Below, in pieces: positions 21,321 through 58,596 of a stretch of DNA of 64,000 nucleotides. The position numbers and the translations under genes are program-made. The notes beneath the pieces are model-generated. The model had not been told where the DNA came from, did not search any database, and saw nothing but the letters and a program-made list of their open reading frames with translations. Numbering within the stretch: the stretch's first letter is position 1; each line of letters starts with the position of its first letter. Source of the stretch: Deltaproteobacteria bacterium. Lineage in GTDB: Bacteria > Myxococcota_A > Polyangia > HGW-17 > SLPX01. The DNA is taken from the NCBI GenBank assembly GCA_021162935.1, contig JAGGXR010000063.1:10043-74042 (forward strand), read 5' to 3'.

Positions 21321-22475
21321 CTATTTCCAACGGGCAATGTTCAGTTTACGTCCTGGCGTGACGGTGATCAGGCGGATCATGGATTTCTTGCCGTCGTAGC
21401 TCCTGAATTCCACCTTGTAGGGCTTGGCTCGGGCTGGGATGCCGATTTCGTTCCAGAGTCCAACGTCCCGGCCGTCCACCCGGATTCGGGCCCAGGGCGT
21501 CAGTTTGACGATGAGGACGCCGATACCGAAATTTCTCTTTGTCACCTGTCCTCGCTTGACGAAGACGCGCATCTTTCTGCCGACATGATACCTGCGGTAA
21601 TAGAAGATGACGGAGTATTCACCCTCGGGTACCAGAAGTTGTTTGATGGGGGTTTTTTTGCCCACGAGAGGCGCCCTGTTGATCCACACCTCGCAGGGGA
21701 ACGATGCCGTGAGGGTGAGCTTGCCCAGGACAGGTGAATTCTTGAGCCGTTTTCTGACCTCGCGTGCATTTTTCCCGCCGGGCATGACGCGCAGATACCG
21801 GACATAATAGGCTTGGGCCTGCTTCGTCTCGTGGAGTTTGGCGTACACCTGGCCGATCCACCGCAGGGCTCCGACCAGGGTCGGGTCCAGCATGAGGGCC
21901 GCCTGGAAGTACTTGATGGATGTGTGGTATCGGTGCCTTCGTGTCGCCTTCAATCCAAGGGTGAACGCTTTGACGCCGAAGGTTCGGGCGGATGCATGGG
22001 CCGCCAGATCCGAATCCACGAATGGAGCCGGCATGGACGCCATGGCCTTGATGGCGGTTTGGGCGGCGGCGATTTTTTTCGCATCCTTGGAGATCTTGAT
22101 GAAACGACGGAACGTTTCTGATGCCTCCACGAACTGTCCTGACATTCGGTAGACCTGTGCCAGCCGATACATGAGTTTGGGATTGTCGCCGGTCAGCGCC
22201 ACGGCGCCGCGGTACAGGACCGCCGCCTTGACGATGTTGCCTTGGTCGATGGCCGCCTCGGCCGCTTTGGTCAGCCAGGTGGCGTTTGGCATTTTTGGGT
22301 TTGAGGTTGCAGCACGGGCCGACGGCCGTGCCATTCCATGCCGACGGGCGTGCCCCTGTCTCGTTCTGGCTACAGCACGGTGGTGACGGGGTCGAGCTTG
22401 GGCCGGAGCAGCCATGAGAAGGGTGCAGACGAGGGAAAGGAGTCCAATGCGGGTTGGAGGAGCAATGCTGTTCAT
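21321..22475 (-). CDS. Secreted TPR plus PEGA-domain protein
   Basis: Start at the ATG at 22475 (MNSIAPPTRIGLLSLVCTLLMAAPAQA signal peptide). TPR-like helical repeats, then C-terminal PEGA-type beta domains (LTLTASFPCEVWINRAP..., LIVKLTPWARIRVDGRDVG...). Confidence 0.6.
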   Translation of the reverse strand: MNSIAPPTRIGLLSLVCTLLMAAPAQARPRHHRAVARTRQGHARRHGMARPSARAATSNPKMPNATWLTKAAEAAIDQGNIVKAAVLYRGAVALTGDNPKLMYRLAQVYRMSGQFVEASETFRRFIKISKDAKKIAAAQTAIKAMASMPAPFVDSDLAAHASARTFGVKAFTLGLKATRRHRYHTSIKYFQAALMLDPTLVGALRWIGQVYAKLHETKQAQAYYVRYLRVMPGGKNAREVRKRLKNSPVLGKLTLTASFPCEVWINRAPLVGKKTPIKQLLVPEGEYSVIFYYRRYHVGRKMRVFVKRGQVTKRNFGIGVLIVKLTPWARIRVDGRDVGLWNEIGIPARAKPYKVEFRSYDGKKSMIRLITVTPGRKLNIARWK

Positions 22476-22680: not shown

Positions 22681-23613
22681 ATGGTTCCCACGAGAATTTT
22701 GTTATTGGAGCGGAACAAGCTCCACCTCCGGAAGCTGACGCGGGTCCTGACCTGCACCGGTGTCGAAGTCATCCCAATGGAGGACAAGTCCGAACTGTCT
22801 TTGCATTTGGACGACCAACCGGCGGTTTTATGCGCAGACGCGGTGGATCTGTCTTCCGTGGTCGCGATTCTGGATGCACGTCAGGACATCCGTGCTGTGG
22901 TCTGGACAGCCAGCCAGGACCGCGCCGTCCTGGAGCGGGCGCTCGACCATCCTCGCCTTAGTCACATTTTGGGGCGAGCGTCACCCGATGTTCCTCCGAG
23001 GGAATGGGAGATTCTATGGACGGTGCGACGGATGATAACCGGCGAGCGTCCGTCGCTGGCCAGCCTGTTGCATTGGGGGTACACGGGCTTCAAAGAGACG
23101 GTTCGTACCCCACGCGATCGGGACCTGTGCGTCGAGGGAGTCGTTCGTTTTTGTGAGCGCCTCAATACGCCCGGTCGAGTTCGGGAGATGCTCGGGGAGT
23201 TCGCGCACGAATTGTTGATGAATGCCATGTACGATGCTCCAGTCGACGCGGCTGGACAACCCAAGTACGCCCATGACCGAAAGGCGCAGATCGAGTTGTC
23301 CGACGACGAAGCCGCGGTGATCCGCTGTGCGTCTGATGGGACGAAAATTCTCATTTCGGTGGTGGATCGGTTTGGGAGATTGCCACGGGACAAGGTGTTT
23401 TCCGGGATGCTCCGCGGATTGGATGGCGGAATCATGGATAAAAGTTACGGCGGAGCCGGTCTTGGGATGGTATATGTCTATAAGGCGAGTGTTGTTTCGA
23501 TATTTGACGTCGAACCAGGCAAGCGAACCGAGGTGACCGGGATTTACGAATTGGACCTGAATCAACGAATTTTTCGAACTTTGCCCAGGTCAGTGCATGT
23601 ATTCATCGGGTGA
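22681..23613 (+). CDS. Degenerate receiver-like domain fused to a GHKL ATPase (RsbW/SpoIIAB-like anti-sigma kinase-like), paralog 1
   Basis: The N-terminal about 110 aa have receiver-like topology, but the acidic pocket is replaced (ILLLERN). The C-terminal domain has an N-box ELLMNAMYDAP, a G1-like VVDRFGRL and G2 GGAGLGMVY. Paralogous to 28957-29955. ATG at 22681. Confidence 0.55.
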   Translation: MVPTRILLLERNKLHLRKLTRVLTCTGVEVIPMEDKSELSLHLDDQPAVLCADAVDLSSVVAILDARQDIRAVVWTASQDRAVLERALDHPRLSHILGRASPDVPPREWEILWTVRRMITGERPSLASLLHWGYTGFKETVRTPRDRDLCVEGVVRFCERLNTPGRVREMLGEFAHELLMNAMYDAPVDAAGQPKYAHDRKAQIELSDDEAAVIRCASDGTKILISVVDRFGRLPRDKVFSGMLRGLDGGIMDKSYGGAGLGMVYVYKASVVSIFDVEPGKRTEVTGIYELDLNQRIFRTLPRSVHVFIG

Positions 23614-23694
23614 GACTTGGGACGACTGCCGTTCAGGGTTCGCGCTGAGAAGTGGAAAATATTCTTGCCGGTGTTCTGAAAGAGGAGTGATGCG

Positions 23695-25911
23695 ATGACG
23701 GGAGCAATGAACCAGGCGGGAGGGCAGCCGAAGCTTCAGATTGCGAAGATCGTCGAAGGCGACATCATGAGCCTTCGATTCATCGGGACCATTGATGAGG
23801 ATTTCGATGGGAAGCAGATGGCAGAGACGGTCAAAGGGACGCTGATTTTGGATCTTGGGCAGGTGCGGCGCATCAGCTCTTTCGGTATTCGTGAGTGGGT
23901 CGACTTCATCGGTGCAGCCAGCGAGAAGTGCAAGGCCATCTACTTCGTCGAGTGCTCTCCGAAGGTGATGGACCAGTTCAACATGGTGGCGAACTTTGCT
24001 GGCAAGGGACGCGTCCTTTCCTTTTATGCCCCGTACCGATGCGATTACTGCGACGACGATCGGGTGCGACTCGTTCAGGTGGAGGACAGCTGGGACGATA
24101 TTCAGAACATGCACCTGCCGGACTATCCCTGCGAGTCCTGTGGAAACCCTGAGTATTTCGATGAAGATCCCCAGAGCTTCTTCAATCACTTGATCAACCA
24201 GCCCAAGGTCGAGCCGGATCCGGCGGTGGCCAATTTTTTGGCCACGAAGCTCAACTATACGGTATCCGATGCCGCGAGGCGGCTTCGCATCGAGAAGCAC
24301 ATTGGTAGGGCAACCTATATCAAGTTGGCCGGGGATCTGGATGCCGACTTCCCGAAGAACAAGATTGTCGAGGGGTTGGAAGGCGATGTGGTGTTCGACG
24401 TGGGAAGCCTCGGCCGCATCGACGACGCAGGAGCTACGGTTTGGGCCAACGCCATGCAGGAGATCGCCCAGACTGCGTCGCGTGTCATGGTCAGACACGC
24501 GACACCTGGTTTCATCGAACGACTCACCACGCCCGAGGCGCTCGCCGGCAAGGTGGAGGTGCTCGACCTCTATATGCCGTTTGCCTGTTCCCATTGCGGC
24601 ACGACGGCAGCGCAACTCGTGGACGTGGCCGAGCATTTCGACGTGCTTAAATTTGCGACACCTCCGGAGATGACCTGCTCGGATTGCGGCGCCAAGACCG
24701 ATTGCGTTGCATCCGAGGAGTTCATGGCGCAGGTTGCCGGGCTGCCGAAGCCCGATCTGTCGTCGGACCTGAAGAAGTTCTTCGACGAGGCGGAAGAAAT
24801 CGTCAACCGTCCTCCGGTAGCTGCTGCACAGGGGCCGCAGGCGGGCCTGCCTTCGTTGGGTGGGGGGGCGGCGCCCATGGTGGCGCCGGCACGGACCATG
24901 GGGCTCGCCGCTCTGATTGCCGTGGTGGTTTCATTGGTCGTGGTGCTCGGTGTGGGGCTCATGGTCTGGAAGTACGTCCAGATGAAGAAGACGAAGCTCT
25001 ACGACGAGGCTGGGACCGTGGTGAAACAGAAGGCGGCCAAGCTGCCTGGCTGGATGAAGAAGGCCAAGACGAAGAGTGTGTGGCGTGATGGGGGCGTCCT
25101 GACGGTGGTGGGCTATTCTCACAGCGCCAGGGACAGCGAGCAAGCTCGTCAGTTGGCGGTGGAAGACGCCCTGGAGAGCATCGTGCAAGAGATTGCCGAC
25201 GGCGTGCAGAACGAGGACTGGAAGCAGGCGGTTATGGCCCAATACAAGGACGTTCGATCCGACAGCATCGAGCGCCTCAAGACCGCCATGACCGCAAAGG
25301 ATGCGGATGCCGTTCGAAAAGCCAGGAAGAAGGTGTGGGAAGCGAGACGCCGGGTGGCCAAGGCGTTTAGGGCCACGGCCTACGAGGTGCCCAAGGAGGG
25401 AGACGACTTTTGGCAGAAGCTCAAGACGTCGGACGGCATTCGTTGGCGGTATTGGGTCATCATCCAGGTGGACGAAAAGAAGATCGAGGGGTATCGCCAG
25501 CACTATACGAAGTTGTACAAGACGCAGGGCGTGATCGTCGCAAACTACTTTCCCGGCTTGGCTTGGGCCTATCCGACGGCGACCGCGGGAGCCGTCGTCT
25601 TGAAGGTGGATGCCGGTAGCCCCTGGCGGGTCCCCGGTTTGGAGCGTGGCAATCTGATCGTGGAATGTCGGCGCCAGCAGATTGGCAGCGGCAAGGTTTT
25701 CGTGGAGTCCATCGATGAGACGACGCGGCTTTTCAAGGATTCGGGCGGTCGGGTCGAGTGCAAGACGCTGTACGGGTCGGTGGTGCGGCCGGTCGGGTAC
25801 GAGATTGCCCGGAAAACCCAGCCAAGGGTCCACAACGGCGGGCGAACGTATCCGCACCATCGGCCGGCCACCACGTTCACCGGAAATGTGTGGGACGATC
25901 CCACGAAATGA
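23695..25911 (+). CDS. Membrane-anchored protein with two tandem STAS-like domains, each followed by a Cys4 zinc-ribbon, one TM helix, and a C-terminal PDZ-like domain
   Basis: STAS module 1: LILDLGQVRRISSFGIREWVDF...ECSPKVMDQFNMVANF then FYAPYRCDYCD...CESCG. Module 2: VVFDVGSLGRIDDAG...LYMPFACSHCG...CSDCG. TM segment GLAALIAVVVSLVVVLGVGLMVW. C-terminal region GLERGNLIVECRRQQIGSGKVFVESI. RBS gaaagaggag. Confidence 0.6.
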   Translation: MTGAMNQAGGQPKLQIAKIVEGDIMSLRFIGTIDEDFDGKQMAETVKGTLILDLGQVRRISSFGIREWVDFIGAASEKCKAIYFVECSPKVMDQFNMVANFAGKGRVLSFYAPYRCDYCDDDRVRLVQVEDSWDDIQNMHLPDYPCESCGNPEYFDEDPQSFFNHLINQPKVEPDPAVANFLATKLNYTVSDAARRLRIEKHIGRATYIKLAGDLDADFPKNKIVEGLEGDVVFDVGSLGRIDDAGATVWANAMQEIAQTASRVMVRHATPGFIERLTTPEALAGKVEVLDLYMPFACSHCGTTAAQLVDVAEHFDVLKFATPPEMTCSDCGAKTDCVASEEFMAQVAGLPKPDLSSDLKKFFDEAEEIVNRPPVAAAQGPQAGLPSLGGGAAPMVAPARTMGLAALIAVVVSLVVVLGVGLMVWKYVQMKKTKLYDEAGTVVKQKAAKLPGWMKKAKTKSVWRDGGVLTVVGYSHSARDSEQARQLAVEDALESIVQEIADGVQNEDWKQAVMAQYKDVRSDSIERLKTAMTAKDADAVRKARKKVWEARRRVAKAFRATAYEVPKEGDDFWQKLKTSDGIRWRYWVIIQVDEKKIEGYRQHYTKLYKTQGVIVANYFPGLAWAYPTATAGAVVLKVDAGSPWRVPGLERGNLIVECRRQQIGSGKVFVESIDETTRLFKDSGGRVECKTLYGSVVRPVGYEIARKTQPRVHNGGRTYPHHRPATTFTGNVWDDPTK

Positions 25912-25953
25912 GGCTCGTGACGCAATGAGGCTCGTGACGCAGCGAGGTTCGAG

Positions 25954-27174
25954 ATGAGGAACTGGATTGCATTCGGGCTGCTTGCCTTGGCGGTCATGGC
26001 TGGCACCCCGGCCCGGGGACAGACGTTCTCCAGCCCCCGACAACGTGCCAAGTACGTACGCCTGTATAACAAGGGGAACGCCTTTTTGTATCAGGGCCAA
26101 TATGTTCCCGCCATTGCTCATTTCAAGCAGGCCATTGCCATCGCCCCCCAGTTGCCCGGTGCCTGGCGGCAGCTCGGGTTGGCCTACGAGGGCATGGAGG
26201 AGTATCGGTCGGCCATCAGGGCCTATCAGCAGTATTTGAAGTATGCTGGCACGAGAGGAAAGTACGCCGTCAAGGTGATGCTGCGCATCAACGTGTGCCG
26301 GTCCAAGGTTGGGCTGCCGCCGAAGAAATTCGAAACCTTCCTGACAGGACGGCCGGGCATGGTCAACGTGACCTGCAACGTCGAGGGTGCTCTGGTTCGG
26401 GTCGACAACGTTCAGCGAGCTTCGACGCCGACCGGTCCCTTGCCAGTCTCCCCGGGGTTGCACACGATCACGGTCTCCAAGGTGGGGCGTTTGCCCTGGA
26501 GTTCCTCGATTGTGATCCAATCGGGGCAGAACGCCTCGGTGAACGCGGTCCTCAAGCCCGATCCCTCGTATCATCTTATCGTAGTTCGTCCGAGAATTGC
26601 CGTTCCCAAGACGACCCGGGCCTCGGTGATCATGAGGGTCAACGTCAAGCAATTCCAGGTGTTCGCCAACGGCAAGCGGGTGGCTTCTGGTGCTACCGGA
26701 GCCTATGAGTTGGGATCGGGGATCTGGCTGGTCGAGGTGCGGGCGCCTGGGATGCTGACCTGGAGCCGTAAGGTGTCTCTGGGCAAGGGAGAACATCGGG
26801 TGTTCGACGTTCGGTTGTACAATCGAAAGCGGCAGATTGCATTCAGTCGATATGCCTGGGCGACCTTGGCGACGGCGGCCGCACTGACCATCGTGGGCGC
26901 TGGATTCGGGTTTGCCGAGGACCATGCTTATGAACGGGTTCGAGATCGGGATGCATCGTCGAGGCAGGAACTGGATGACTTCGCCCGTCGCGGTAAGGCC
27001 TATCGAGCGGTTTCTTTGACCCTGTATGGTGCCGCCGGTGCGGCACTCATCACGTCGGCCGTGTTTTTTTTGCTGCATCACAGGAGTGAGTCTGCGACAG
27101 GCAAAGTCCCTCTGTCGCTATCTGTGGGGCGCAGGGGTGTTTCCCTGTCCTTTACCAGGGAGGTGGATTTCTGA
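25954..27174 (+). CDS. Secreted TPR plus PEGA-domain protein with a C-terminal TM anchor
   Basis: Signal peptide LLALAVMAGTPARGQ. TPR-like AIAHFKQAIAIAPQLPGAWRQLGLAYEGMEEYRSAIRAYQQYL. Two PEGA-like modules (MVNVTCNVEGALVRVDN..., IWLVEVRAPGM...). TM segment WATLATAAALTIVGAGFGFA. Confidence 0.65.
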   Translation: MRNWIAFGLLALAVMAGTPARGQTFSSPRQRAKYVRLYNKGNAFLYQGQYVPAIAHFKQAIAIAPQLPGAWRQLGLAYEGMEEYRSAIRAYQQYLKYAGTRGKYAVKVMLRINVCRSKVGLPPKKFETFLTGRPGMVNVTCNVEGALVRVDNVQRASTPTGPLPVSPGLHTITVSKVGRLPWSSSIVIQSGQNASVNAVLKPDPSYHLIVVRPRIAVPKTTRASVIMRVNVKQFQVFANGKRVASGATGAYELGSGIWLVEVRAPGMLTWSRKVSLGKGEHRVFDVRLYNRKRQIAFSRYAWATLATAAALTIVGAGFGFAEDHAYERVRDRDASSRQELDDFARRGKAYRAVSLTLYGAAGAALITSAVFFLLHHRSESATGKVPLSLSVGRRGVSLSFTREVDF

Positions 27175-27599
27175 TGCGGACAACGGTCTTGTGGTCGCTC
27201 GTCGTCTCCGCTCTCGTCATGGGGAGTGGCTGTCCTCTTGGTCACGACCAGTACGATACGTCCCGGAGTTGCGTCGAAAATAGCCAATGCCCCGGCAGTG
27301 AGATCTGCCTTGCTCCAGATGCATCAGTGGGCGATGGCGGCGGGTTGGCTCAAAGTACCTGCCAGGCCGAAGAGGGGCTGACCCGTTGCGTCTTCGGCGA
27401 TGCCGGAGTTTCCTACTACTGTTCGTCGTCCGGAGCGTCTTGCTATCACCAAATAAGGACCTGTCTCGAATTCGACCGTGATGCGGGCTGTCCAAACGGC
27501 TGCGAGGACGATGCGGGCAATCAATGGGACGCGGGTTGCACCAAGTGGCAGCCGGAGCGTTTTGGATGCCACGAGGCGAAATCCGGGAGGTATCGATGA
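27174..27599 (+). CDS. Small Cys-rich secreted lipoprotein
   Basis: Signal peptide plus lipobox LVMGSGC. 16 Cys in 141 aa. Start overlaps the upstream stop and the stop overlaps the downstream start. Confidence 0.45.
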   Translation: MRTTVLWSLVVSALVMGSGCPLGHDQYDTSRSCVENSQCPGSEICLAPDASVGDGGGLAQSTCQAEEGLTRCVFGDAGVSYYCSSSGASCYHQIRTCLEFDRDAGCPNGCEDDAGNQWDAGCTKWQPERFGCHEAKSGRYR

Positions 27600-28915
27600 C
27601 CATGTCACCACGCGGATCGTCTCGGCAGAGCAGATCGGCCCTTGCTCCGCATGGAGCGGTCCGTCGGGCATTGCTGGGCGGGGCGACATCGTTTATCCTG
27701 GCGGTGGTTTTATTTTGGACCTTTCCCGCCCGAGCAGGCGGTTTCACGAGGGCGACGGGCATTGGAGCCCGGGCATCCGGCATGGGCGGTGGCTTTGCGG
27801 CTGTGGCGAGTGATGCGTCGGCCGTATTTTACAACCCGGCTGGCTTGGTGACCATCCCATCGGATGTGCTGGTGGGGTCGGAGTTGGTCTTCATCATTCG
27901 GAAGTACCAACCTTCCGGGGGCGAGATGGAAAAGGCGTCGACCGTTCCGCTTCCGCTTCCCTATGCCTTCGGGTCCGCTCGGTTCTTGGTGGGACAGGGC
28001 ATCCACATGGCGCTCGGTTTGGGGATCTATGCGTCTCAAGGGGGGGCAATCGAGTACAAGCAGCGGCCCATCACGGAGGGGATCGTCAAGTCCAGGGTCG
28101 GCCTGTATGAGTTCGTTCCTGCCGTGGCTCTCGAATTGAGCCGCAGGGTCCATGTGGGAGCGAGTCTTCGGATTGGACTCGGGTTCTTTTCAGTGAATCG
28201 CGGCTGTGGAGACCTGCTGAGCTGCAACCAAGGACGGATGGCTCAGACATTCACTGTGTTGGACACGATGTACGGGGTGGGATTCGGGTATGCGCTGGGC
28301 ATCCTGGTGGAGCCGTTTGACGGATTCACGGTGGGCGCCACGTATCATTCGAACATCAATGTGACGGCTCGCGGCAACGGTGCTCTGCATGCAGGAGGAG
28401 CCACCTATGATACGTCGGTCCGGCTGCCGTTTCCCCAGAGCGTCAGGCTCGGATTGGCGTACCGTATCAACCCGAAGTGGCTCGTTGCCTTTCAGGCGGA
28501 TTGGGTCGACAATTCCAGCTTTCAGGAACTGTTCGTGGACGTCAAGAAGGTGCATCTGCCGCGTTCTTTGATGACGACGCAGATGGATTGGGTTGACAGC
28601 TACGCCGTGCATGCCGGGGTGGAGTTCCAGCCGTTGTCTTGGCTTCAGGTGCGTTGGGGAATCGTTTACGATTCCAGTGCCATCAAGCTGCAGTATCGCA
28701 GCCGTGACCTGGAGGATGCCGAGAAGATTGGCTTTGACGCGGGCGTTTCGTTCCTGTTCGGTCGATGGCGTATCGAGGCCAGCCTGGATACAATGATGGG
28801 CGATGTGGCCAATGGGTTCAAGTCCGTGACGGTGCCCCAGAGCGCCTTGGCGCCTGGAAAACACTATCCTGGAGGCGCGGTCTACACGCACCTGGCTGCC
28901 GGCGCCCGTTTCTGA
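27596..28915 (+). CDS. FadL/OmpP1/TodX-family outer-membrane hydrophobic-compound transporter
   Basis: GARASGMGGGFAAVASDASAVFYNPAGL is the family N-terminal signature. About 14 predicted beta strands and a C-terminal aromatic residue. Start at the ATG at 27596 (ATGA overlap). Confidence 0.75.
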   Translation: MTMSPRGSSRQSRSALAPHGAVRRALLGGATSFILAVVLFWTFPARAGGFTRATGIGARASGMGGGFAAVASDASAVFYNPAGLVTIPSDVLVGSELVFIIRKYQPSGGEMEKASTVPLPLPYAFGSARFLVGQGIHMALGLGIYASQGGAIEYKQRPITEGIVKSRVGLYEFVPAVALELSRRVHVGASLRIGLGFFSVNRGCGDLLSCNQGRMAQTFTVLDTMYGVGFGYALGILVEPFDGFTVGATYHSNINVTARGNGALHAGGATYDTSVRLPFPQSVRLGLAYRINPKWLVAFQADWVDNSSFQELFVDVKKVHLPRSLMTTQMDWVDSYAVHAGVEFQPLSWLQVRWGIVYDSSAIKLQYRSRDLEDAEKIGFDAGVSFLFGRWRIEASLDTMMGDVANGFKSVTVPQSALAPGKHYPGGAVYTHLAAGARF

Positions 28916-28956
28916 CATTCGATCCACAAAAGACGGGATAGGGGGGCAGTGAGTCG

Positions 28957-29955
28957 TCAGACGGTCGAAACCATGGCTTCAGCGTCTTCGTCCGGATCAA
29001 TGGTGAAAATGTGGAGAGAGTGGGCGTCGTAGTACGGATCCTTGGCGTTCTTGCGGAGGTCGAAGAGGCAGATGACTTCCGTGGTCTCACCTGGTTTCAC
29101 ATTGGCTACGAAGCGGGACACGGATTGCATGACGAAGTAGAGTCCAAGGCCGGCGCCCAAATTCGGGTCGCGGAGGGGCTGGCCTTTTTCTTCGGAGGCT
29201 CGGACGAGCTGATCGAGTACCTTGTTTTTTCTGAGTTGGCCGTAACTATCTTGGACCGAGAGGGCCAGGAATCGACCGTCACAGGCGTATCTGAGCAGGA
29301 CAGATTCGGAGCCTACCGCACCCCCTCCCGGTATCGCCCGCTTCATGAGATCGGCCCTGGACGCCCCCTGTGCCAGGACGGGTGCGTCGTAGAGGGCATT
29401 CATGAGGAGTTCGTCCGCCACCACTTCGATTCGGCTGATGGCATGTCGCCGGATGCCGACGGATTGGGCGAAATCGGCGATTTTCTGGACGGCCGCGCGT
29501 TTTTCGTCGTAGGTCGCAATGGTAGCCTCGTGGGCCACTGTTCCCCAAGTAAGGTATTTTTCCAAACCAAAAATATCGTGGGAAAGCAGCTTGATGCTGG
29601 TGACCACGAGTTCATCCTCTTCGAGAGGCGCTTCCCGGCACAGTAGGTTGTCGCACTGCTCCTGGTAGAGCAGGTTCAGTCCTTCCTCCCAGCGTTCCCA
29701 GTTACCCACGAGCAGGAGATTGGCAGGCCAGGTGACCGAGGCCATGAGTTTGGTCACGGCGTCCGTGTCCGCCGACTGTTGATCCACGATGATGATGGCG
29801 GGGTGAAGTTTACTGAGGTTGGACAGGTCATCACATGAGTCAGCGAAGGTCACTTGCGTTCCGGTGGCCTGGAGCGTTCTGCGGACCATACGGCGCAACT
29901 TGACGTCATTGGTGACGCAGACACACGTATCGATCATTTTCATAGGAGACTTCAT
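28957..29955 (-). CDS. Degenerate receiver-like domain fused to a GHKL ATPase, paralog 2
   Basis: Receiver-like N-terminus (AIIIVDQQSADTDAV, acidic pocket degenerate CVTND). N-box ELLMNALYDAP and G2 LGAGLGLYFV. Divergently transcribed from the 2068-aa TPR gene. Confidence 0.55.
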   Translation of the reverse strand: MKSPMKMIDTCVCVTNDVKLRRMVRRTLQATGTQVTFADSCDDLSNLSKLHPAIIIVDQQSADTDAVTKLMASVTWPANLLLVGNWERWEEGLNLLYQEQCDNLLCREAPLEEDELVVTSIKLLSHDIFGLEKYLTWGTVAHEATIATYDEKRAAVQKIADFAQSVGIRRHAISRIEVVADELLMNALYDAPVLAQGASRADLMKRAIPGGGAVGSESVLLRYACDGRFLALSVQDSYGQLRKNKVLDQLVRASEEKGQPLRDPNLGAGLGLYFVMQSVSRFVANVKPGETTEVICLFDLRKNAKDPYYDAHSLHIFTIDPDEDAEAMVSTV

Positions 29956-30406
29956 CAATTTTCAGTCTACCTGCATTTTTACTATTTCTCAACTTTTTTT
30001 CGCCGTCTTTTTGCGTATCTTTGTCGTTTTTTACTTCGGTTTCTGGCCGGTCATGGGAAACACTGGGCTCGGTCGGTGGAAATACGGGTTATGAGTCCGG
30101 TCGGTTGATGGCATCGGCCCCCATCGAATTGCTGGCTCGTTGACGTATGACTTGCATGCATGCTGATTTTTGCGAGATACCCTGGAATCGTTTGCTTCAT
30201 GGTTGTGGCCGGAGCAGAACGGAGATATGGTGCCCTGGTGACCTATCGGGAGCATGTGAATGTCTGTTGGCGCATCGGGCGTCGGGGTATGTGGCTGACA
30301 AGGAATCGTGCCTGGTGCCACAGATAGATGGCACGCTTCGCCTCGTGGTTGTGATTCTGGTGAATTGTTGTAGTTTTTTGATGCATCAGCCCTGAAGAGG
30401 GGAGAC

Positions 30407-33400
30407 ATGGAGAAAAGAAGGATCGGCCAAGGTAAGGCCATACAGGAGCGCAGCATCGAGGCGGACATGATGGAAGTGTCTGCTTTGCTGGCGCGGGAAG
30501 CACGGGAGTTCCCTGATCGAGACCGTCGTGAGGCGTTGTATCTGAGATTGGCAGTGATCTGTTGGATCCTGTTCGAGGACCTGGATGCCGCTCTTCGCTA
30601 TCTGGATGAGATCGAGTCGCTGTCGGCCGATGGATACCTGTTCAAGAGAAGTTTGTTGTTGGCGGCAGGAGACAGGGTCGGGTTGCGTCGTTTGCTCGAT
30701 TTATCCGTGTCCGAAGGCGTTTGTGCGAGTATTTCTTCGTGTACGCTGGCGGCGGCCGAGACCTTCGCCTTCGTCGAGCAGGATTGGCAAAAGACAGCAG
30801 CTCGTTCGAAGCATATGTTTGGGGGACCGTTCGATGAATCCCTGAACGAGTTGGTCACCTTGGCGCTTGAAATGGCCAAGGACCGCAAGGCCCTCATGCG
30901 GCATTTATCGGAACATGGAGGCATGGCGGGGCATTTCAGGTTGGCGACGATCGTTGGCGACGTGGAGGAACACCGCGAGGAATCCATGCGTATCCTGCGG
31001 GAAATGCTCGATACGCTGCAGGGGGCGGATGAGCATGACTCCTCGACGGAGGCGATGACCAGGTTGGTGTTGGAACGGTTGTGGGAGTTGAACTTCGTCC
31101 GTCCGCCGCTGCGGATTCCTGCCGCTGTGGGCGTCGATTGCCTTTTGGGAAAGAAGTTGGAGCTATTGGGGGACGTGCCCGAGGAGATGTCCGAGGCAAA
31201 CGTGGTGCGGTATCTCCTTGCCCAATGGCACCGGGAACAGGGGGCCCTGGATCGAACGGCCGAGATGCTGGAGTCATTGGCGCAATCCGAGAACCGTTGG
31301 GGGCGGTGTCTCGCGTTAGAGTCGCGCCGTGCGGTCGCCGTGGAGCGAGCCCAGTGGAAGGAACTTTCTGGCTTCTATTCTGAATTGGCAGATGAACTGA
31401 CCGGTTCGTCCTGGAGCGGTGTCTATCGTTTTCGAGCTGCGGAATTGGCGGAGTGCTCCTATTCGACTGACGAAGAGGTGGAAACACTCGCTCGTCAGGC
31501 GCTTGCGGACCTGAAGGATGGAGCACAGGCTCTTGCGATGTTGGAGCGAATCCTGGCCAGGCGCGGCGACGTTGCTGGGCTGGCGGATCTGTTCGAAGCA
31601 GCAGCGGAACGCACGGGGAAGCATCATTACGCCCGTTGGGCGGCACATGTCGTCGAGTTTCAGGTCTCCGACCCGGAGCGGGCCAAGGCGCTTCGATTCT
31701 TTGGGACTACGGATCCTTCGTTTGAGGACCTGTTGGACCGGGTTCGGGTCGAATGGCGGCTCCATCACGCGGACCAGGTGCGGACGTTGTGCGAGACGCT
31801 TGCTGGCTGCGCCATACAGCAAGGGGATGGGGACAGCGGGAAATGGTGGTCGTCGATATGGTCGCTGGCCGCAGGGCTGTCTGCCCTGCGGGTCGAGGAC
31901 GGCATGGAGGCCGAGCGCTTGTTGAAGCAGGCCGTGGATGCGGACTCTTCGGAGCCGGTGGCTTCCATGGCCTTGGCGGTTTTCTATCGCCGTTGGGGGC
32001 AATGGGATGCGGCGATCGAGCGGCTCGAAATGGTCGGAGATCTTCTTAGGTCCACGGCCGCCAAGGTGCATGCCCTGCGAACTCTGGCTCGGGTTGCCGG
32101 GATGCACACCGACCGCACCGACTTGGCCGAAAAGAGTCTGGAAAAGGCGCTGGAGTTGACCCCGGACGATCCGGCTGTCCTCCATGAAATGGCGTTGCTG
32201 GCCGACAAGAGAGAGGATTTCGAACGGGGGCTGCAGCTTCGTCACAAGGCTGCGACGTTGCTCGAGGGCAGCTTCCGTGCCGCCGTCTTGTGGGCTGAAA
32301 TCGGTCGTAGTTATGCGGAACATGGCGACGATGAGGCCGCCGAAAAGGCGTTTGTTCGGTCATTGGATGTGGACGAGAGCCAGATGGATGTTCTGACCGA
32401 TCTCAGTGACATCTACCGCAGACAGCGTCGATGGCCGGAATTGCTCGAATCGGTTCAGCTGCTGCTGGAGCGGGACGAGGAACACGCGGCGGATCTCCAT
32501 GTCGAGGCAGCGCGGCTCGTTCTGAGACAGCACATGGATACGAGCGAGGCTCTTGGCCATTATCGGACCGCGCTCGAGATCAATCCTGAGCATGACAAAG
32601 CCCTCAATGGGCTTGAACGCCTCTGCCGACGAGAAGGGCGTTGGGCGGACCTGATCGACGCGCTTCGCAAGGTGCCCGCAAATGCTGATCGGGTCACCAT
32701 GTTGCTCAATGCATTCGAACGTCTGTCACAGTGGGACGAACTCATCGAGGTGGCGGAGAAGCGCATCGAGGAGACTGGAGATGTGAGTGAGGTGGCTGAG
32801 CTTGCGAGGCGCATCGCCAGCGTCTATGAGTCACAGCTCGGTCAGCCCGATGATGCATTGACCTGGTACAAGAAGGCGTTCGTCGCCAACCCCGGGGACC
32901 GTGAGGTTGCTGCGGTTTACGAAAAGTACTTGAGTCGGGAGGAGCGCTGGGAGGATCTGGCCGAGGCGCTCAAGAGAGAGGTCCAGGTCCTTTCCGACGA
33001 CAAGAAACGTGCCCTGAAGGTGCGCAGGAGATTGGCCGACGTGTTGGCGGACCGTCTTGGGCAGGTTGGGGAGGCGGTTTCCGTTCTGGAACAGGTCGAC
33101 AAGGATGGAGAAGCCAATGAAGATATTTGGCTTCGATTGGCCGACCTGTATGGCCGACTGGGGCGTGTCAAGGATGAACTGGATGTCCTGGAACGGATTG
33201 CTGGGTCCAGTCGAGACCGCGACATGCAGGTGTCCCTGCTCGTCCGGGCGGGAAAGGTTCGAGAGGAGAAAGGGGACGACGAGGGCGCTCTGCAGACGTA
33301 TATCCGTGCCTTCCAGCTCGACCCCGCTCACCGGGATGCTTTTACGGCTGTCGAGCGTCTCTGTTACAAGCTCAAGGTATGGAAGGAGACGTTGGACCTC

Positions 33401-36400
33401 TACAATCGTGCCATCGAGTTGGTGGAACAGCAGGGTAGCAGGGCCTATCGACTGGCGGATCTCTATGCCCGCCGTGGGCAGCTCCAATTGCAGTATATGT
33501 CCCAGCCGGGTGAGGCTGCGGCATCGTATCTCAAGGTCCTGGAGCTTGATCCCAATGAGGACAGGACGGTCAAGTTTCTCGAGTCTATTTTCTCGGAAGA
33601 AGGCGACTGGGAAGGCCTCATGGCGGGCTATGACTATCGTATCAGTCTTCTCGACGATCCAAAAAAGAGGGCCGAGACCTACCGGAGAGCCGCTCGGGTA
33701 GCGGCGGGAAAACTCAACGATCAGAAGCGGGCTTCAGAGTACTACGCGGGCCTGCTCAAGGATGCGCCGGGTGACGACGAGGCACTCGACGCCCTGGAAC
33801 GCCATTATGAACGGAACAGGTTGTGGGAGGAATTGGCGAACATTCTTTTGATGAAGCTGGAGCGCCCGGCTGAGAAAGAAATTCGGGTGGCTCGCTATCT
33901 GCGGCTCGGTCTGATTTATGAAGAAGGGCTCCAGGACGCACAACGGGCCGTGGATGCCTACAAGCAGGGGTTGGAACTCGATCCGAATAATGTGAAAGCG
34001 CTCGAATCGCTTGCTCGCATCTACGAGGCGACCGAGCGTTGGGCCGAGTTCGTGGACGTGGCTCGAAAGCAAATACGGCAAACGGGCGACCGGAATTCCA
34101 AGGCGCTGCTCTACTTCAAATGCGGTTCGGTCATGGAGGCAAAGTTCTCCAAGGAGAACGACGCCATTCGGTATTATAAGGCGGCCATCAAGACTTCGCC
34201 GTCCTGTCTGCCTGCCGTCCACGGGCTTCGCGATCTCTATCTCAGGAAGCAGGAATGGCAGAGGGTCTTGGAGACCCTCGAATTGGAGACGAAGCTGTGG
34301 CAGGAACCTCGTGAAAAGGCCGGTGTCTTCGCCCAGATCGGGAAGGTCTACCTGGATGGCTTGGGCGATTCCCAGAAGGCACGCCGCTATTTCGAGTCCG
34401 CACGAAACCTGGATCCTGAATCCGTTCCTGCTGTGCGTGCCCTGTTCGACATGGCATTCGACTCGCAGAATTGGTCCCGGGCTGTCGAATTGGCTTCATT
34501 GCTCGGACAGAAGGCGATGCGGGAGGGAGAGCCGGCCGAGCGAAGCGAATTTTATCGCAAACGTGGCGTCGTGGCCGAGAAGACGCGGCATTTTCAAGCG
34601 GCGGCGGAGAATTACGTGGCCGCGTTGGATGCCAGGCCCGAGAATCTGGCCGCGTTGGATGCGTTGACCGCGCTGTGTCGCAGTCACCCCTCGGCGTATG
34701 AGTATCAAGATGTGTTCAAGGAATTGGACCACCGATACAAACGCATGGCGTGGCCCGAGGCTCAGGCCCGTATCTTGGTGGCGCGAGGCGCTCTCCAGGA
34801 GCAGTCATACCAGATCGACGAGGCCGAATCTTCCTATCGACAGGCCGTTACCTTGGCGCCTGGCGACCTGAGTGTTCTTGGTTCCATGGTGGACCTGCTG
34901 TATCGGTTGAGACGTTGGTCGGACGCCGTGAAGTTGCTCGAGGAATTCGTACGGCGTTCTGGGGTGTCTCAGGACGATCGGGTGCAGGCTCTCGTTCGTG
35001 CCGGCGGCATCATGTCCGAGGGTGCCATGGACACGAGGGCGGCTGAGAAGTTGTTTCTCAGAGCCCTTCGCCTTCAGTCTCGGAGTCGGGATGCGCTTTA
35101 CGGATTGGCTCAGGAGTTGGTGCTTCAGCGTCGGCTCCAGGAGGCCCAGCGGCGTTGCGCGGAATTGATCGAAGTAGCGGCGGATCCTGCGCATACGGCG
35201 CCGCCGGAAGACTTGGGGCTATACTACTATTACCAGGGCCGCATTTTCGAGGCCATGGGAGATGCTCGAAAAGCTGGCTTGAGCTACAGAAGGGCGGCTG
35301 ATCTGAATCCGGGATACCCACCTCCAGTCATTGCGTTGGGAGAACGGTATCTTCGTGAGGGAGATATTCGTCAGGCGGAGTCTCTGTTGTCGTCCTCGTC
35401 AGTGTCTGCCGAAGAGGTTGGCAGGTTCGAAGAAGCGCTGGAATTGCGCCGTGCCCTCGCGCGCCTCCAGGCCGAAAGCGGTAACCTGGATGCGGCCATC
35501 GGCGAATTGCGCGCCATCGTGGCCGACGATCGCGGAAAGGTCGATGATCGGATAGGCCTGGCCCGATTGTATCTTCGGACCAAGGATGGGTCCGCCGCCG
35601 CGATCGAACAGTTGCTGTCGGCTTTGGAGCAGGAGCCGGCGAACGTTCTGGCGATTCAACTGCTTGCCTCTGTCTGGGCGACCCAAGAACAGTGGGATGC
35701 CGTGCGCCGAGCCTGGGACGTCATGCTGTTGCTCGGACGTTCCGGGGACGTTCCAGAGCAGGCGACAGCCACGGTGCGGCCGAGCATGGAGGCGATGCCT
35801 CATTTGCGCGTCAGCGACGAGGTGACCCAGATTGCATCTCGATTTTCAGGACCGTTCGAGAATCTGTTTCGGGCGATCCGGGGGGGCGTCGACCTGATCT
35901 ACCCCGTGACGTACATTGGCAAGAATCACGTTCCATATACGGATGCGGAAGTGCCAGGTTTCGTCGAGGAGACTCGGTGGCTTCTCAATGCATTTGGTTG
36001 GAAGGATCGCGCGGACGTGTTTGTCGCGGAAGATGTTCCCGGGCGTCTGTCGCTGATGACCAAAGGAGAACGGGTTCAGGTCGTGCTCGATCGTGTGTTC
36101 GTCTCGGGCGACATTGGGATCGTGCGTTTTGCTTTGGCCAAAGCACTTGCGTACGAGCGATTCGGACTGACCGTGTTGGGGCGTCTCGGCCCGAAAGAAC
36201 GCAACGAAGTCGGGCAACTGCTCTTGGGGATTGCGGTGCCTGCAGAGAAGCGTCTTCCTCAAGTTGTGGAGTTCCTCGATGCACTGCCTCGCAAGGAGCA
36301 CAAGGCTGCGGATCGGATTGCTCTCGCCGCCGGGGAAGACATGCTTCTTGCCAGCCCAAGGCAGTGGATGCGGGACGTGGATCGGAGTACCGAGCGACTG

Positions 36401-36613
36401 GCGCTTGCCTTTTTGGATGACATAGTTTTAGCGTTGAAAGCCATGGCTTTGATGCAGGCCGAAGAAATGGTCATCGAATCGGGACAGAATCTGGCACTTG
36501 TTTACGGCGTGGATGGGGCGTGGGAACTGCTTCCATATTATATTGGCCCCGACCAGGCCAGGGCCATCGTGGCACTTTCGTCCGAGCCGGATCAGAAACC
36601 GGTGCAGAATTAG
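30407..36613 (+). CDS. Giant TPR-repeat protein (2068 aa) with a non-TPR C-terminal domain of about 250 aa
   Basis: One continuous ORF. Dozens of 34-aa TPR-like repeats throughout (for example AYIRAFQLDPAHRDAF, ASYLKVLELDPNE). RBS ggggag. The stop TAG at 36611-36613 lies inside the MITE terminus. Confidence 0.7.
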   Translation: MEKRRIGQGKAIQERSIEADMMEVSALLAREAREFPDRDRREALYLRLAVICWILFEDLDAALRYLDEIESLSADGYLFKRSLLLAAGDRVGLRRLLDLSVSEGVCASISSCTLAAAETFAFVEQDWQKTAARSKHMFGGPFDESLNELVTLALEMAKDRKALMRHLSEHGGMAGHFRLATIVGDVEEHREESMRILREMLDTLQGADEHDSSTEAMTRLVLERLWELNFVRPPLRIPAAVGVDCLLGKKLELLGDVPEEMSEANVVRYLLAQWHREQGALDRTAEMLESLAQSENRWGRCLALESRRAVAVERAQWKELSGFYSELADELTGSSWSGVYRFRAAELAECSYSTDEEVETLARQALADLKDGAQALAMLERILARRGDVAGLADLFEAAAERTGKHHYARWAAHVVEFQVSDPERAKALRFFGTTDPSFEDLLDRVRVEWRLHHADQVRTLCETLAGCAIQQGDGDSGKWWSSIWSLAAGLSALRVEDGMEAERLLKQAVDADSSEPVASMALAVFYRRWGQWDAAIERLEMVGDLLRSTAAKVHALRTLARVAGMHTDRTDLAEKSLEKALELTPDDPAVLHEMALLADKREDFERGLQLRHKAATLLEGSFRAAVLWAEIGRSYAEHGDDEAAEKAFVRSLDVDESQMDVLTDLSDIYRRQRRWPELLESVQLLLERDEEHAADLHVEAARLVLRQHMDTSEALGHYRTALEINPEHDKALNGLERLCRREGRWADLIDALRKVPANADRVTMLLNAFERLSQWDELIEVAEKRIEETGDVSEVAELARRIASVYESQLGQPDDALTWYKKAFVANPGDREVAAVYEKYLSREERWEDLAEALKREVQVLSDDKKRALKVRRRLADVLADRLGQVGEAVSVLEQVDKDGEANEDIWLRLADLYGRLGRVKDELDVLERIAGSSRDRDMQVSLLVRAGKVREEKGDDEGALQTYIRAFQLDPAHRDAFTAVERLCYKLKVWKETLDLYNRAIELVEQQGSRAYRLADLYARRGQLQLQYMSQPGEAAASYLKVLELDPNEDRTVKFLESIFSEEGDWEGLMAGYDYRISLLDDPKKRAETYRRAARVAAGKLNDQKRASEYYAGLLKDAPGDDEALDALERHYERNRLWEELANILLMKLERPAEKEIRVARYLRLGLIYEEGLQDAQRAVDAYKQGLELDPNNVKALESLARIYEATERWAEFVDVARKQIRQTGDRNSKALLYFKCGSVMEAKFSKENDAIRYYKAAIKTSPSCLPAVHGLRDLYLRKQEWQRVLETLELETKLWQEPREKAGVFAQIGKVYLDGLGDSQKARRYFESARNLDPESVPAVRALFDMAFDSQNWSRAVELASLLGQKAMREGEPAERSEFYRKRGVVAEKTRHFQAAAENYVAALDARPENLAALDALTALCRSHPSAYEYQDVFKELDHRYKRMAWPEAQARILVARGALQEQSYQIDEAESSYRQAVTLAPGDLSVLGSMVDLLYRLRRWSDAVKLLEEFVRRSGVSQDDRVQALVRAGGIMSEGAMDTRAAEKLFLRALRLQSRSRDALYGLAQELVLQRRLQEAQRRCAELIEVAADPAHTAPPEDLGLYYYYQGRIFEAMGDARKAGLSYRRAADLNPGYPPPVIALGERYLREGDIRQAESLLSSSSVSAEEVGRFEEALELRRALARLQAESGNLDAAIGELRAIVADDRGKVDDRIGLARLYLRTKDGSAAAIEQLLSALEQEPANVLAIQLLASVWATQEQWDAVRRAWDVMLLLGRSGDVPEQATATVRPSMEAMPHLRVSDEVTQIASRFSGPFENLFRAIRGGVDLIYPVTYIGKNHVPYTDAEVPGFVEETRWLLNAFGWKDRADVFVAEDVPGRLSLMTKGERVQVVLDRVFVSGDIGIVRFALAKALAYERFGLTVLGRLGPKERNEVGQLLLGIAVPAEKRLPQVVEFLDALPRKEHKAADRIALAAGEDMLLASPRQWMRDVDRSTERLALAFLDDIVLALKAMALMQAEEMVIESGQNLALVYGVDGAWELLPYYIGPDQARAIVALSSEPDQKPVQN

Positions 36614-36907: not shown

Positions 36908-37846
36908 ATGAATCAGAAATTTCAGGCTACGATTCAACAGCGTGACGATGTGACCTACCTAAAACTGTCGGGGGTCATTGATGAAGACAATGAGTTGTTC
37001 GACATTCTGGACAGTGTCGGGCCGGGGTCTGCGGTCATCAATCTGTCCGAAATCGAGCGGATCAATTCCTGTGGCGTTCGCGACTGGGTGAATTGGTTGA
37101 ACAAGCTGGAGAAGAAGGGGTCCAAGGTGGTCTTGGTGGAGTGCAGTCCAGCCATTGTCGCCCAGATTAACCTGGTCAACAACTTCACCGGAAACGGCAT
37201 CGTCAAGAGCTTCTATGCTCCGTATTTTTGTCCGGCCTGCGATCTCGAAAAAGTCCTCCTCGTGGACATGGATGATGTGGCCGGCATGGATGAGCCCAAG
37301 GCTCCCATCTGCCGTTGCGATGAATGCGATGGTGTGATGGATTTCGATGACATGGAGGAGTCGTATTTCGCGTTCGTTTCGACGGCGCACAAAGGGGCCG
37401 TCGACGCCCATGTGACCAAGGTCGTTTCGGAATTGGCCGAGGACGACGGATCCGGCGGAGGTCGGGTCAAGACTCGGAAGTCGTCGAGTTTTTCTTCGGT
37501 GGGTTCGTCGCGGAGTCGGACTGGGTCGCAGGTTTCGAGTGTGTCGTTACCGTCCCTTCCGTCGGTGCCGTCGCTTCCATCTCTTCCTTCTTTGTCCAGT
37601 ATTGAACAATCACGTCCGGGGCACGGTGGGAACTCGGCCCCGATGGCTCCGGCTCCACGTTCCGCCAAGACGAATCTCGTCCTGATCGTGGTGGCCATTC
37701 TCCTGCTCGTTGCTATCGTCATGCTCGCTTACGTGATTTTTGGCATGAACAGCAAGGGCCATGGGTCGGATTCAGCGGCTGTCGTCCTGGGATTGTTGGA
37801 GGCTGGTTCGGCTGCAGGAACCTACAGAAGTAGTTCTTTTTTGTAA
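36908..37846 (+). CDS. Membrane-anchored STAS-like domain plus Cys4 zinc-ribbon protein
   Basis: [21 protein letters not shown]...[22 protein letters not shown] then [11 protein letters not shown]...CRCDECDG. Ser/Pro-rich linker ([19 protein letters not shown]). TM segment [24 protein letters not shown]. Confidence 0.6.
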
Positions 37847-38358
37847 TCCACGAGTTCTTTTTGGACCCCAAGGAGGGCCTCGTTGCTGGACAGGAGTTGT
37901 CTGGTCCGTTCCTGAACTTTCTCGACGAGACGTTCTCGTTCTCGTGCCTCCGTTTCCAGCATTTCTTGGTACTTGATCTGCACCATGGCTTCGTCAGTGA
38001 CGTTTCGGAGAATGACGAGCGCCCCGGTGATGGTTCCGTTGTCATCGCGGAGGGGAATACCGCTCATGATCATGTTGATGGCGTCTTCGGACTCCTTGGG
38101 CTTCCCGACGATTTCATCGAGGCGGACGTGGCGGCCTGCGTCCATGCATTCGGCCCCGATGTCCCGTTCGATTTCCATCACTTGCCCGAGCGTCTTCCCC
38201 TTGAGTTTTCTAGCGATATTTCTCGGGAAGAGACCGTAAAACATACGGTTGAATGCTAGGATATGACCTTCTTTGTCCACGATATAGTAGGCGTCGATGA
38301 TGACGTCACTGAATTTTGCAAAGGTTTCGATCAAGTCCATATCGTCCACACCTTCCAA
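37822..38358 (-). CDS. PAS-domain protein with a C-terminal coiled coil
   Basis: 178 aa. PAS-like core ([25 protein letters not shown]...[13 protein letters not shown]) followed by a heptad-rich tail. Confidence 0.5.
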
Positions 38359-42984: not shown

Positions 42985-43010
42985 GCAAGAGGACGAACGG
43001 AGTGGATGTG

Positions 43011-43937: not shown

Positions 43938-43967
43938 GAGTAGGAATGTAAGCGAGGCGACGTGTTC

Positions 43968-58443: not shown

Positions 58444-58596
58444 GATGCCCCCTACACTCCATGAGAAAATTGATGGATTCGTAAAAAGTCGGATTTTTTC
58501 AAGTAACTGAAACAATTGATTAAGTTCTCATTTTTGCTTGACATGATATCTTGCTTGTAGCACATTTATTTCATGATTTCAATTCATTACAGGACA

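Follow-up and report, generated by a model that had tools for sequence, protein, structure and literature searches.

Partner switching is mostly understood as the control of sigma factors by soluble proteins, and several described systems extend this picture in ways that bear on the locus considered here. SypE unites an RsbW-like kinase, a central canonical receiver and PP2C in a single chain. In the sigma-independent SypE-SypA system of Vibrio fischeri, Ser56 of SypA controls biofilm (PMC8256260). The receiver of LvrC from Leptospira interrogans (PDB 9qih; Nat Commun 2026) is canonical, with LvrB phosphorylating its D53, and an anti-sigma output has been proposed for the protein (PMC13269768). 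A receiver fold that has lost any one of the residues termed DD, D, T or K counts as a pseudo-receiver; losses fall most often on DD2, D frequently survives, and the mechanisms of these domains were called a mystery in a 2025 review (PMC12632262). Here, we examine two genes, P1 and P2, in a stretch of 64,000 nucleotides from a Deltaproteobacteria bacterium (the 64-kb window; contig JAGGXR010000063.1, positions 10,043 to 74,042). We favour, with moderate confidence, the reading that both encode Ser kinases of a membrane-tethered partner switch predicted to work independently of any sigma factor, a family that would depart from the usual picture.

P1 (22681-23613, plus strand, 310 aa) and P2 (28957-29955, minus strand, 332 aa) share one architecture, in which a pseudo-receiver is joined through a conserved linker to a GHKL domain of the SpoIIAB/RsbW type. 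The pseudo-receiver covers residues 1-125 in each (nt 22681-23055 in P1; nt 29955-29581 in P2), and the GHKL domain covers residues 135-310 of P1 (nt 23083-23610) and 142-318 of P2 (nt 29532-29002), with the P2 linker reading DIFGLEKYLTWG. The two proteins are full-length paralogues: BLASTP aligns them at 26% identity over ~310 aa (E=3e-24), the GHKL halves alone at 30% over 174 aa (E=5e-20) and the N-terminal halves alone at 23% over 132 aa (E=0.007). A first-pass annotation, made from the letters of this DNA, had described both open reading frames (ORFs) with about 30-35% identity over the GHKL domain, in line with the computed value, and the motifs that it read are all found, namely the N-box (HELLMNAMYDAP in P1, DELLMNALYDAP in P2), IRCASDG / LRYACDG and GGAGLG / LGAGLG. 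Each paralogue has a distinct orthologue family in a collection of 5.8 billion proteins (647 matches for P2, 413 for P1), with conservation well above chance level, and the few matches that carry organism names come from myxobacterial metagenome-assembled genomes; the window corresponds to such a contig of a Deltaproteobacteria bacterium, with locus tags J7M25_07800 and J7M25_07825. A simple hydropathy scan places both proteins in the cytoplasm. Two cysteines of the P2 family form a separate observation: Cys13 in β1 of the pseudo-receiver (nt 29919-29917) occurs in 117/117 aligned sequences and Cys296 in the GHKL domain (nt 29070-29068) is kept in at least 90% of a 33-sequence alignment, and the conservation of neither extends to the wider superfamily.

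AlphaFold2 models built with family alignments (predicted local distance difference test 90.3 and predicted TM-score 0.89 for P2; 91.1 and 0.90 for P1) display β1α1-β5α5 over the first ~125 residues, then a short helix and an α/β sandwich. In Foldseek searches of the PDB, the top match for both models was LvrC, over the full length (E=1.3e-8 for P1, 3.6e-12 for P2). SpoIIAB (E=7e-7 to 1e-4, TMt 0.75-0.82), RsbW (TMt 0.78-0.86) and SiaB (6kko) were also among the structural matches, as were many isolated receivers (TMt 0.7-0.83). The receiver-like character ascribed to the N-terminal domains in the first-pass annotation is thus borne out by a (βα)5 fold. By sequence, the P2-family profile reaches receivers, placing D58 on the acceptor Asp of KdpE (E=7.7e-5). 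The P1-family profile reached none in the PDB, returning spurious de novo TIM barrels and the NtrC receiver at E=0.89, so P1 is assigned as a receiver from its predicted structure and its homology to P2. Single-sequence searches of the PDB with P1 and P2 gave no match, and Pfam Response_reg (PF00072) scored on 0/33 and 0/36 family members at E<=0.01 (0/69 together).

Pocket positions were set by the KdpE profile alignment, predicted strand ends and family alignments (n=120 for P2, n=116 for P1). The P1 pocket consists of E10 and R11 (22708-22713), D53 (22837-22839), T76 (22906-22908), and G98 and R99; that of P2 consists of T15, N16 and D17 (29913-29905), D58 (29784-29782), G84, and C106 and R107. 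The acidic Mg2+-binding pair after β1 is lost in both families. At DD1, the P2 family carries T15 (101/120) and the P1 family E10 (104/116, with Asp in 8 more); at DD2, P2 relatives are variable and non-acidic (S, R, G, A and others) and P1 relatives carry R11 (112/116). The acceptor Asp is D58 in 118/120 P2-family sequences and D53 in 104/116 P1-family sequences (Glu in 7 more). The T position is G84 in 112/120 of the P2 family and T76 in P1, with Thr or Ser in 114/116. At the K position, the P2 family has S, A, G, T or C at 106, followed by D or R at 107, and the P1 family has G98 followed by R99 (106/116); a Lys at the end of β5 occurs in neither subfamily alignment. Additionally, as read from the sequences, neither P1 nor P2 has a Pro at D+4 or an aromatic residue at K-3. 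Judged by these alignments, the N-terminal domains qualify as pseudo-receivers under the published definition, but they are not aspartate-less. An alignment of the Asp/Thr/Lys triad accordingly finds a pocket that is not intact, and the supposition that the phospho-accepting acidic residues had been replaced holds for the metal-binding pair, with the Lys and the P2 Thr lost as well. It fails for the acceptor Asp, which is among the best-conserved residues of the domain in both subfamilies, so the first-pass annotation was wrong about which residues had gone. Across the superfamily as a whole, this Asp drifts to N, H, S or E in 43/148 representatives.

These 148 representatives, at <=50% identity, come from an exhaustive profile search that returned 929 clusters at E<=1e-30 and 2,450 at E<=1e-10, and they also define the conservation of the ATP site. 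E182, N186, D236, G239, G269 and G271 (P2 numbering) are invariant in 143-148 of them and present in both P1 and P2. The N-box Glu, E182, is found in 148/148 and would, by analogy with other GHKL proteins, be the catalytic base. The G1 box of the family reads D-x-x-G, against the usual D-x-G-x-G. Pfam HATPase_c_2 matches 23/33 P2-family members at E<=0.01 (best E=2.5e-7) and HATPase_c matches 5/36 P1-family members. An hhalign comparison of the P2 family with one SpoIIAB sequence aligned the N-box only, and weakly (E=0.079), placing E182/N186 on E46/N50. A scan of NCBIfam gave weak sub-threshold matches only (RsbA family 0.0015, NblR 0.1). The earlier description of P1 and P2 as anti-sigma-type Ser kinases agrees with the SpoIIAB/RsbW-like fold and the invariant ATP motifs; its ‘anti-sigma’ part is without support, as Pfam scans found no sigma-70 family gene among the scanned ORFs of the window or in the six annotated relatives of the locus (L001, L002 and L083-L086).

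Outside the ATP site, the strongest signature among the 148 representatives lies in α5 and the linker, E115...T119..K122....D127-I-F-G-L-E-K-Y-L-x-W-G138, with F129 in 141/148 and G130 in 145/148. This motif, and not the receiver pocket, is the most conserved N-terminal feature of the superfamily. Because this conserved connector joins them, the pseudo-receiver and the GHKL domain form one conserved unit, and a survey of the 150 best representatives of the superfamily shows that unit in many settings outside the window (P0267, P0272, P0300, P0245, P0343, P0349, P0344, P0363, P0250, P0382). Six checked cases have it behind genuine Response_reg domains and three have it behind cNMP-binding domains; in one (P0250) it follows a HisKA-HATPase_c core and in another a 7TMR-DISM domain. 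It stands ahead of 3-4 PEGA domains in the scanned P0267 and P0272, an arrangement that ~10 further proteins of ~700 aa with an N-terminal unit may share, and in other relatives it stands ahead of a PilZ domain or a CheX-like domain. The pseudo-receiver-GHKL unit is a mobile cassette. Since genuine receivers sit ahead of the pseudo-receiver in relatives, the latter is better seen as an internal adaptor than as a phospho-input, and the fusions behind receivers, cNMP-binding domains and histidine kinase cores argue for the docking or regulatory role first suggested for it. The PEGA fusions, for their part, echo the PEGA proteins of the P1 operon. A STAS partner common to the entire superfamily was considered and rejected, with a PilZ-like gene following a receiver-unit protein in L086.

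The genomic surroundings of P2 were surveyed with one genome per GTDB species; 433 loci were found and 80 kept. Almost all of the latter are labelled Myxococcota or delta-proteobacterial, mainly Polyangia, Haliangiales and Kofleriaceae, and those outside are one Bdellovibrionota locus and one labelled Acidobacteriota. Window proteins were compared with the kept loci by tblastn, and P2 counts refer to the 49 loci with >=9.9 kb upstream. The most constant neighbour of P2 is a giant cytoplasmic TPR protein of 2068 aa (30407-36613, plus strand), whose gene was found in 48/49 loci and is always divergent when present; Pfam matches across it are to TPR-type repeat models only. In the window, the two genes diverge across 451 bp (29956-30406) with a GC content of 50.5% against 58.7% for the window, as the first-pass annotation had described. 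A promoter and terminator scan returned no more sites than in shuffled sequence, including one weak -35/-10 match at 29992-29964 that was not significant. Next after the giant TPR gene, in 47/49 loci, comes the orthologue of STAS312 (36908-37846, plus strand), a protein with a STAS domain and zinc ribbon (STAS-ZnR), a Ser/Pro-rich linker and, by hydropathy scan, one transmembrane helix (residues 259-277). A small PAS protein (37822-38358, minus strand) is kept in 30/49 loci, and its gene is followed by that of a HAMP-SpoIIE phosphatase or, alternatively, by a small STAS gene with a histidine kinase. Within the available 10-kb flank, which limits both counts, PP2C or histidine kinase genes were seen in 26/49 loci and PP2C in at least 19/49.

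P2 belongs to this cluster of giant TPR, STAS312 and PP2C. The FadL end of the P1 operon abuts P2 on its other side, and because the P1 module is absent beside P2 in most loci, P2 lies outside that PEGA/FadL operon. The earlier statement that the paralogues flank the tandem-STAS gene and the PEGA/FadL operon is therefore true of the window, but it does not make P2 a part of the operon. The likely substrate of P2 is STAS312, and not the tandem-STAS protein STAS738. An arrangement in which both kinases act on the tandem-STAS gene product was rejected, the conserved partners of P2 lying on the other side of P2.

The window contains four domains in which STAS is combined with a 4-Cys zinc ribbon: two in STAS738, one in STAS312 and one in a small soluble protein (43962-44516, plus strand). 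The STAS-ZnR profile matches SpoIIAA (E=1.1e-5), with R-I-N-S-C-G lying on M-D-S-S-G-L. Ser54 of STAS312 (37067-37069) aligns with the phosphorylated Ser of SpoIIAA, Ser58, and the small protein has its Ser at 44193-44195. A Ser occupies this position in 55/60 STAS-ZnR domains, and the four Cys are present in 59/60. The two domains of STAS738 (23695-25911, plus strand) differ at this point. In the first, Ser62 (23878-23880) is conserved in 119/119 homologues. In the second (residues 186-375), the position is Pro in 97/119 and Asp or Glu in 22/119, with Asp in the window protein, so that this domain looks like a non-phosphorylatable pseudo-STAS. Both zinc ribbons of STAS738 are fully conserved. 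According to a hydropathy scan, the two STAS-ZnR domains are cytoplasmic and are followed by a transmembrane helix (residues 406-424) and a periplasmic C-terminal part; the C-terminal end is PDZ-like, and relatives show PDZ matches.

STAS738, the predicted substrate of P1, lies in the P1 operon directly downstream of P1. It is followed on the plus strand by a TPR and PEGA protein (25954-27174) that starts with a signal peptide and has two hydrophobic helices in its C-terminal part, a small Cys-rich predicted lipoprotein (27174-27599) whose first 20 residues end in GSGC, and an outer-membrane barrel of the FadL/Toluene_X type (27524-28915). The barrel gene, which has its probable start at 27596 with a 4-nt overlap with the upstream stop, is the last of the operon and is convergent with P2. 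Divergent from P1 is a secreted TPR protein with a PEGA-like C-terminus (21321-22475, minus strand; probable start Met at 22475, ORF open to 22787), found at the same position in six related loci, in four of them by sequence match. The order TPR/PEGA (minus strand), then P1, tandem STAS (~750 aa), TPR-PEGA, small protein and FadL recurs in L003, L008, L012, L013, L083 and L085. The P1 and P2 modules adjoin in the window and in four other loci, and in most loci the P1 module is not seen beside P2.

Together with P2 and STAS312, a membrane sensor phosphatase (38790-40565, plus strand) completes a kinase, STAS and PP2C triad within the window. Pfam detects SpoIIE (E=8.7e-41) and HAMP in this protein, and the hydropathy scan finds two transmembrane helices around a loop of ~185 aa, ahead of the HAMP and SpoIIE domains. 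From this topology the loop is probably periplasmic, and the protein is the predicted STAS phosphatase. Further along the cluster, the gene for the small soluble STAS protein shares its last 4 nt with the beginning of the gene for a PAS-HisKA-HATPase_c histidine kinase (44513-45850, plus strand), and no canonical response regulator was seen among the scanned ORFs of the window or in the six annotated related loci. This pair recurs in 7 related loci, following the STAS312 orthologue in L011, L015, L022, L031, L039 and L041 and standing directly after a P2-like gene in the Bdellovibrionota genome L057.

In the mechanism that we favour, P1 and P2 would be soluble cytoplasmic Ser/Thr kinases of the SpoIIAB/RsbW (GHKL) type, each with a built-in pseudo-receiver adaptor and each serving its own conserved module. 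P1 would phosphorylate Ser62 in the first STAS domain of the inner-membrane protein STAS738, which is predicted to be co-transcribed with periplasmic TPR/PEGA proteins, a lipoprotein and the FadL-type outer-membrane barrel. P2 would phosphorylate Ser54 of the membrane-anchored STAS312, and the HAMP-SpoIIE membrane phosphatase would undo phosphorylation on a signal sensed outside the cytoplasm. The pseudo-receiver would take no phosphoryl group by normal chemistry and would instead couple an upstream partner to the kinase through α5 and the linker; the input may come from the TPR giant, from the orphan histidine kinase and the small STAS protein paired with it, or from eukaryote-like kinases of the sort that adjoin relatives. 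The partner switch would act through protein-protein contacts with the giant TPR scaffold and the envelope PEGA/FadL apparatus, and not through the release of a sigma factor. Such a protein-protein output is the more likely one because neither a sigma factor nor a canonical response regulator was seen locally. Of this scheme, the analysis shows the folds, the conserved motifs, the synteny and the placement of the Ser, and from these the kinase activity, the pairing of kinases with substrates, the part played by the phosphatase, the output and the binding partner of the pseudo-receiver are inferred.

Several observations weigh against this mechanism. The kinase activity, STAS binding and phosphosites of P1 and P2 are predictions from sequence and structure, and the pocket equivalences derive from a sequence-profile alignment and predicted secondary structure. 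P2 scores below the Pfam cut-off for HATPase_c_2 (PF13581; 19.6 against 27.4 bits), and P1 has no match to that model in the Pfam scan. STAS phosphorylation is not superfamily-wide, since the neighbours in other branches are PilZ-like proteins instead. The genome could hold a sigma factor gene at some other place, and the orphan histidine kinase is part of the same conserved cluster. Moreover, the acceptor Asp is strongly kept (98% in P2, 90% in P1), and P1 retains the Thr and has Glu at DD1 and Arg at K; a domain with a purely structural role would not be expected to show this. These last features would suit a different account, in which P1, P2 or both are working atypical response regulators and the histidine kinase at 44513-45850 phosphorylates D53 or D58, switching the GHKL domain as proposed for LvrB and LvrC. 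Consistent with it are the acceptor Asp in 118/120 P2 and 104/116 P1 family members, the Thr or Ser in 114/116 of the P1 family alongside that Glu and Arg, the nearest solved structure (LvrC, with its canonical receiver phosphorylated by LvrB), a PAS-HisKA-HATPase_c kinase that lacks a cognate response regulator in the cluster here and in 7 related loci, and a histidine kinase core fused right ahead of the unit in P0250. We nevertheless regard this account as quite unlikely. At DD2, a direct Mg2+ ligand, P1 has Arg (112/116) and P2 various non-acidic residues; the Lys is gone in both, and Thr has become Gly in P2. The Asp itself is N, H, S or E in 43/148 representatives, and the Bdellovibrionota operon, in which the histidine kinase is retained, has Asn at this position. 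Furthermore, several relatives carry a genuine Response_reg domain ahead of the unit, and 0/69 family members score on the Pfam Response_reg model.

The GHKL domain leads to two other explanations. Its resemblance in fold to SpoIIAB and RsbW, and the full kinase, STAS and PP2C triad in the cluster, would fit true anti-sigma factors of the RsbW/SpoIIAB kind acting on an unlinked sigma factor, with the STAS proteins as membrane-tethered anti-anti-sigma factors. We hold this to be unlikely: scanned window ORFs and the six Pfam-annotated related loci contain no sigma-70 gene, the invariant neighbour is a TPR protein of 2,000 aa and not a sigma factor, the STAS proteins are membrane-anchored and lie within envelope operons, and sigma-independent precedents exist in SypE/SypA and SiaB/SiaC. 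Alternatively, the GHKL domains may bind ATP without being kinases, leaving P1 and P2 as nucleotide-dependent partners or scaffolds for STAS or the giant TPR protein, with the Ser serving for binding only. The absent (P1) and sub-threshold (P2) matches to Pfam GHKL models, the D-x-x-G form of the G1 box and the pairing of other superfamily branches with PilZ or PEGA, not STAS, point in this direction. Against it stand the invariance of E182 and of every ATP-contacting motif, a dedicated PP2C phosphatase whose conservation in the cluster implies that something there must be phosphorylated, and the Ser present in 119/119 first domains of STAS738 and lost in the non-partner second domain; we consider this explanation very unlikely. 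Returning to the kinase reading, a broader version of it is possible and is put forward tentatively. In this version, the unit would be a large unnamed cassette of ~930 clusters (50% identity, E<=1e-30), mostly in Polyangia, with the hallmark D-I-F-G-L-E-K-Y-L-x-W-G, which in its stand-alone forms would run a sigma-independent membrane partner switch. STAS-ZnR phosphorylation would then control the envelope-spanning PEGA/FadL apparatus (P1) and the 2,000-residue TPR scaffold (P2), and the pseudo-receiver would dock the histidine kinase or the TPR giant, with the catalytically stranded Asp, and with Arg at DD2 in P1, forming part of the docking interface.

Other features surround these modules. 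A TPR ORF of 932 aa (40186-42984, plus strand) overlaps the end of the phosphatase gene; its start is probably a Met at 40537, followed by a signal-peptide-like stretch, which would give a secreted TPR protein encoded directly after the phosphatase. Next comes 43002-43937, the gene of a Gly-rich protein that has a hydrophobic helix at its N-terminus and matches no Pfam model. Genes for eukaryote-like Ser/Thr kinases (Pkinase) directly adjoin P1- or P2-like genes in L002, L083, L084, L085 and L086, that is, in 5/7 Pfam-annotated related loci, the exceptions being L001 and the 3.7-kb contig of P0267; none was seen among the scanned ORFs of the window. Between 55000 and 58600, the GC fraction drops to 0.51-0.53, and a minus-strand ORF of 655 aa there (56548-58515) resembles a secreted protein and is apparently unconnected to P1 and P2. 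Searches for tRNA genes and Rfam families gave no match in the window.

Much of this is already known in its parts: the architecture of a receiver-like and an RsbW-like domain (LvrC, 2026), the kinase/STAS/PP2C logic and the commonness of pseudo-receivers. What is new is the combination of a pseudo-receiver welded to a kinase by a family-specific linker with predicted substrates in the form of zinc-ribbon, membrane-anchored STAS proteins, together with an invariant giant TPR neighbour, an envelope operon and no sigma factor nearby. Pfam and NCBIfam hold no model for the pseudo-receiver-GHKL family, whose members are therefore currently annotated as ‘hypothetical protein’, and we found no direct description in the literature of this family, of the combination of STAS with a zinc ribbon, or of a pseudo-receiver with RsbW. 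The STAS and zinc-ribbon module is itself new, tethering the predicted substrates to the membrane and linking them to envelope proteins and the giant TPR protein, and its hosts belong to a little-studied, largely uncultured myxobacterial branch. If true, the kinase reading would give one class of pseudo-receivers a concrete, testable job and would trace a path from cytoplasmic Ser phosphorylation to the control of an outer-membrane apparatus.

Among described systems, LvrC is the closest in architecture, with an N-terminal receiver fold and a C-terminal RsbW/SpoIIAB-like Bergerat domain as in P1 and P2. Its receiver is canonical, however, whereas P1 and P2 lack the metal-binding Asp and the Lys; the P2-family profile fails to retrieve 9qih at E<=1, identity in structural alignments is ~15-16%, and no STAS, PP2C or giant-TPR context has been reported for LvrC. 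As regards the N-terminal domain, P1 and P2 fit the definition of bacterial pseudo-receivers (Bourret et al. 2025), having a receiver fold without at least one of DD, D, T and K. That census was drawn from PF00072 matches, and the domains of the P1/P2 family are too divergent for PF00072 (0/69); the review contains no mention of HATPase, RsbW, anti-sigma or serine kinase (PMC12632262).

With the RsbW-RsbV-RsbU and SpoIIAB-SpoIIAA-SpoIIE systems of Bacillus, the locus shares the GHKL fold with its N, G1 and G2 motifs, the STAS Ser on Ser58 of SpoIIAA, and a SpoIIE/PP2C phosphatase in the cluster. It differs from them in the pseudo-receiver and conserved linker that precede the kinase domain, in the 4-Cys zinc ribbon and membrane anchor of its STAS proteins (one of them being a tandem with a dead second domain), and in its neighbourhood, where there is no sigma factor gene and the invariant neighbour is the giant TPR protein. 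The SypE-SypA system and SiaB-SiaC of Pseudomonas aeruginosa resemble the locus in coupling an RsbW-like kinase and a STAS or STAS-like substrate to a non-sigma output, which is predicted here. Compared with SypE, the P1/P2 design places the pseudo-receiver at the N-terminus, makes the phosphatase a separate membrane protein, and anchors its zinc-ribbon-bearing STAS proteins in the membrane.

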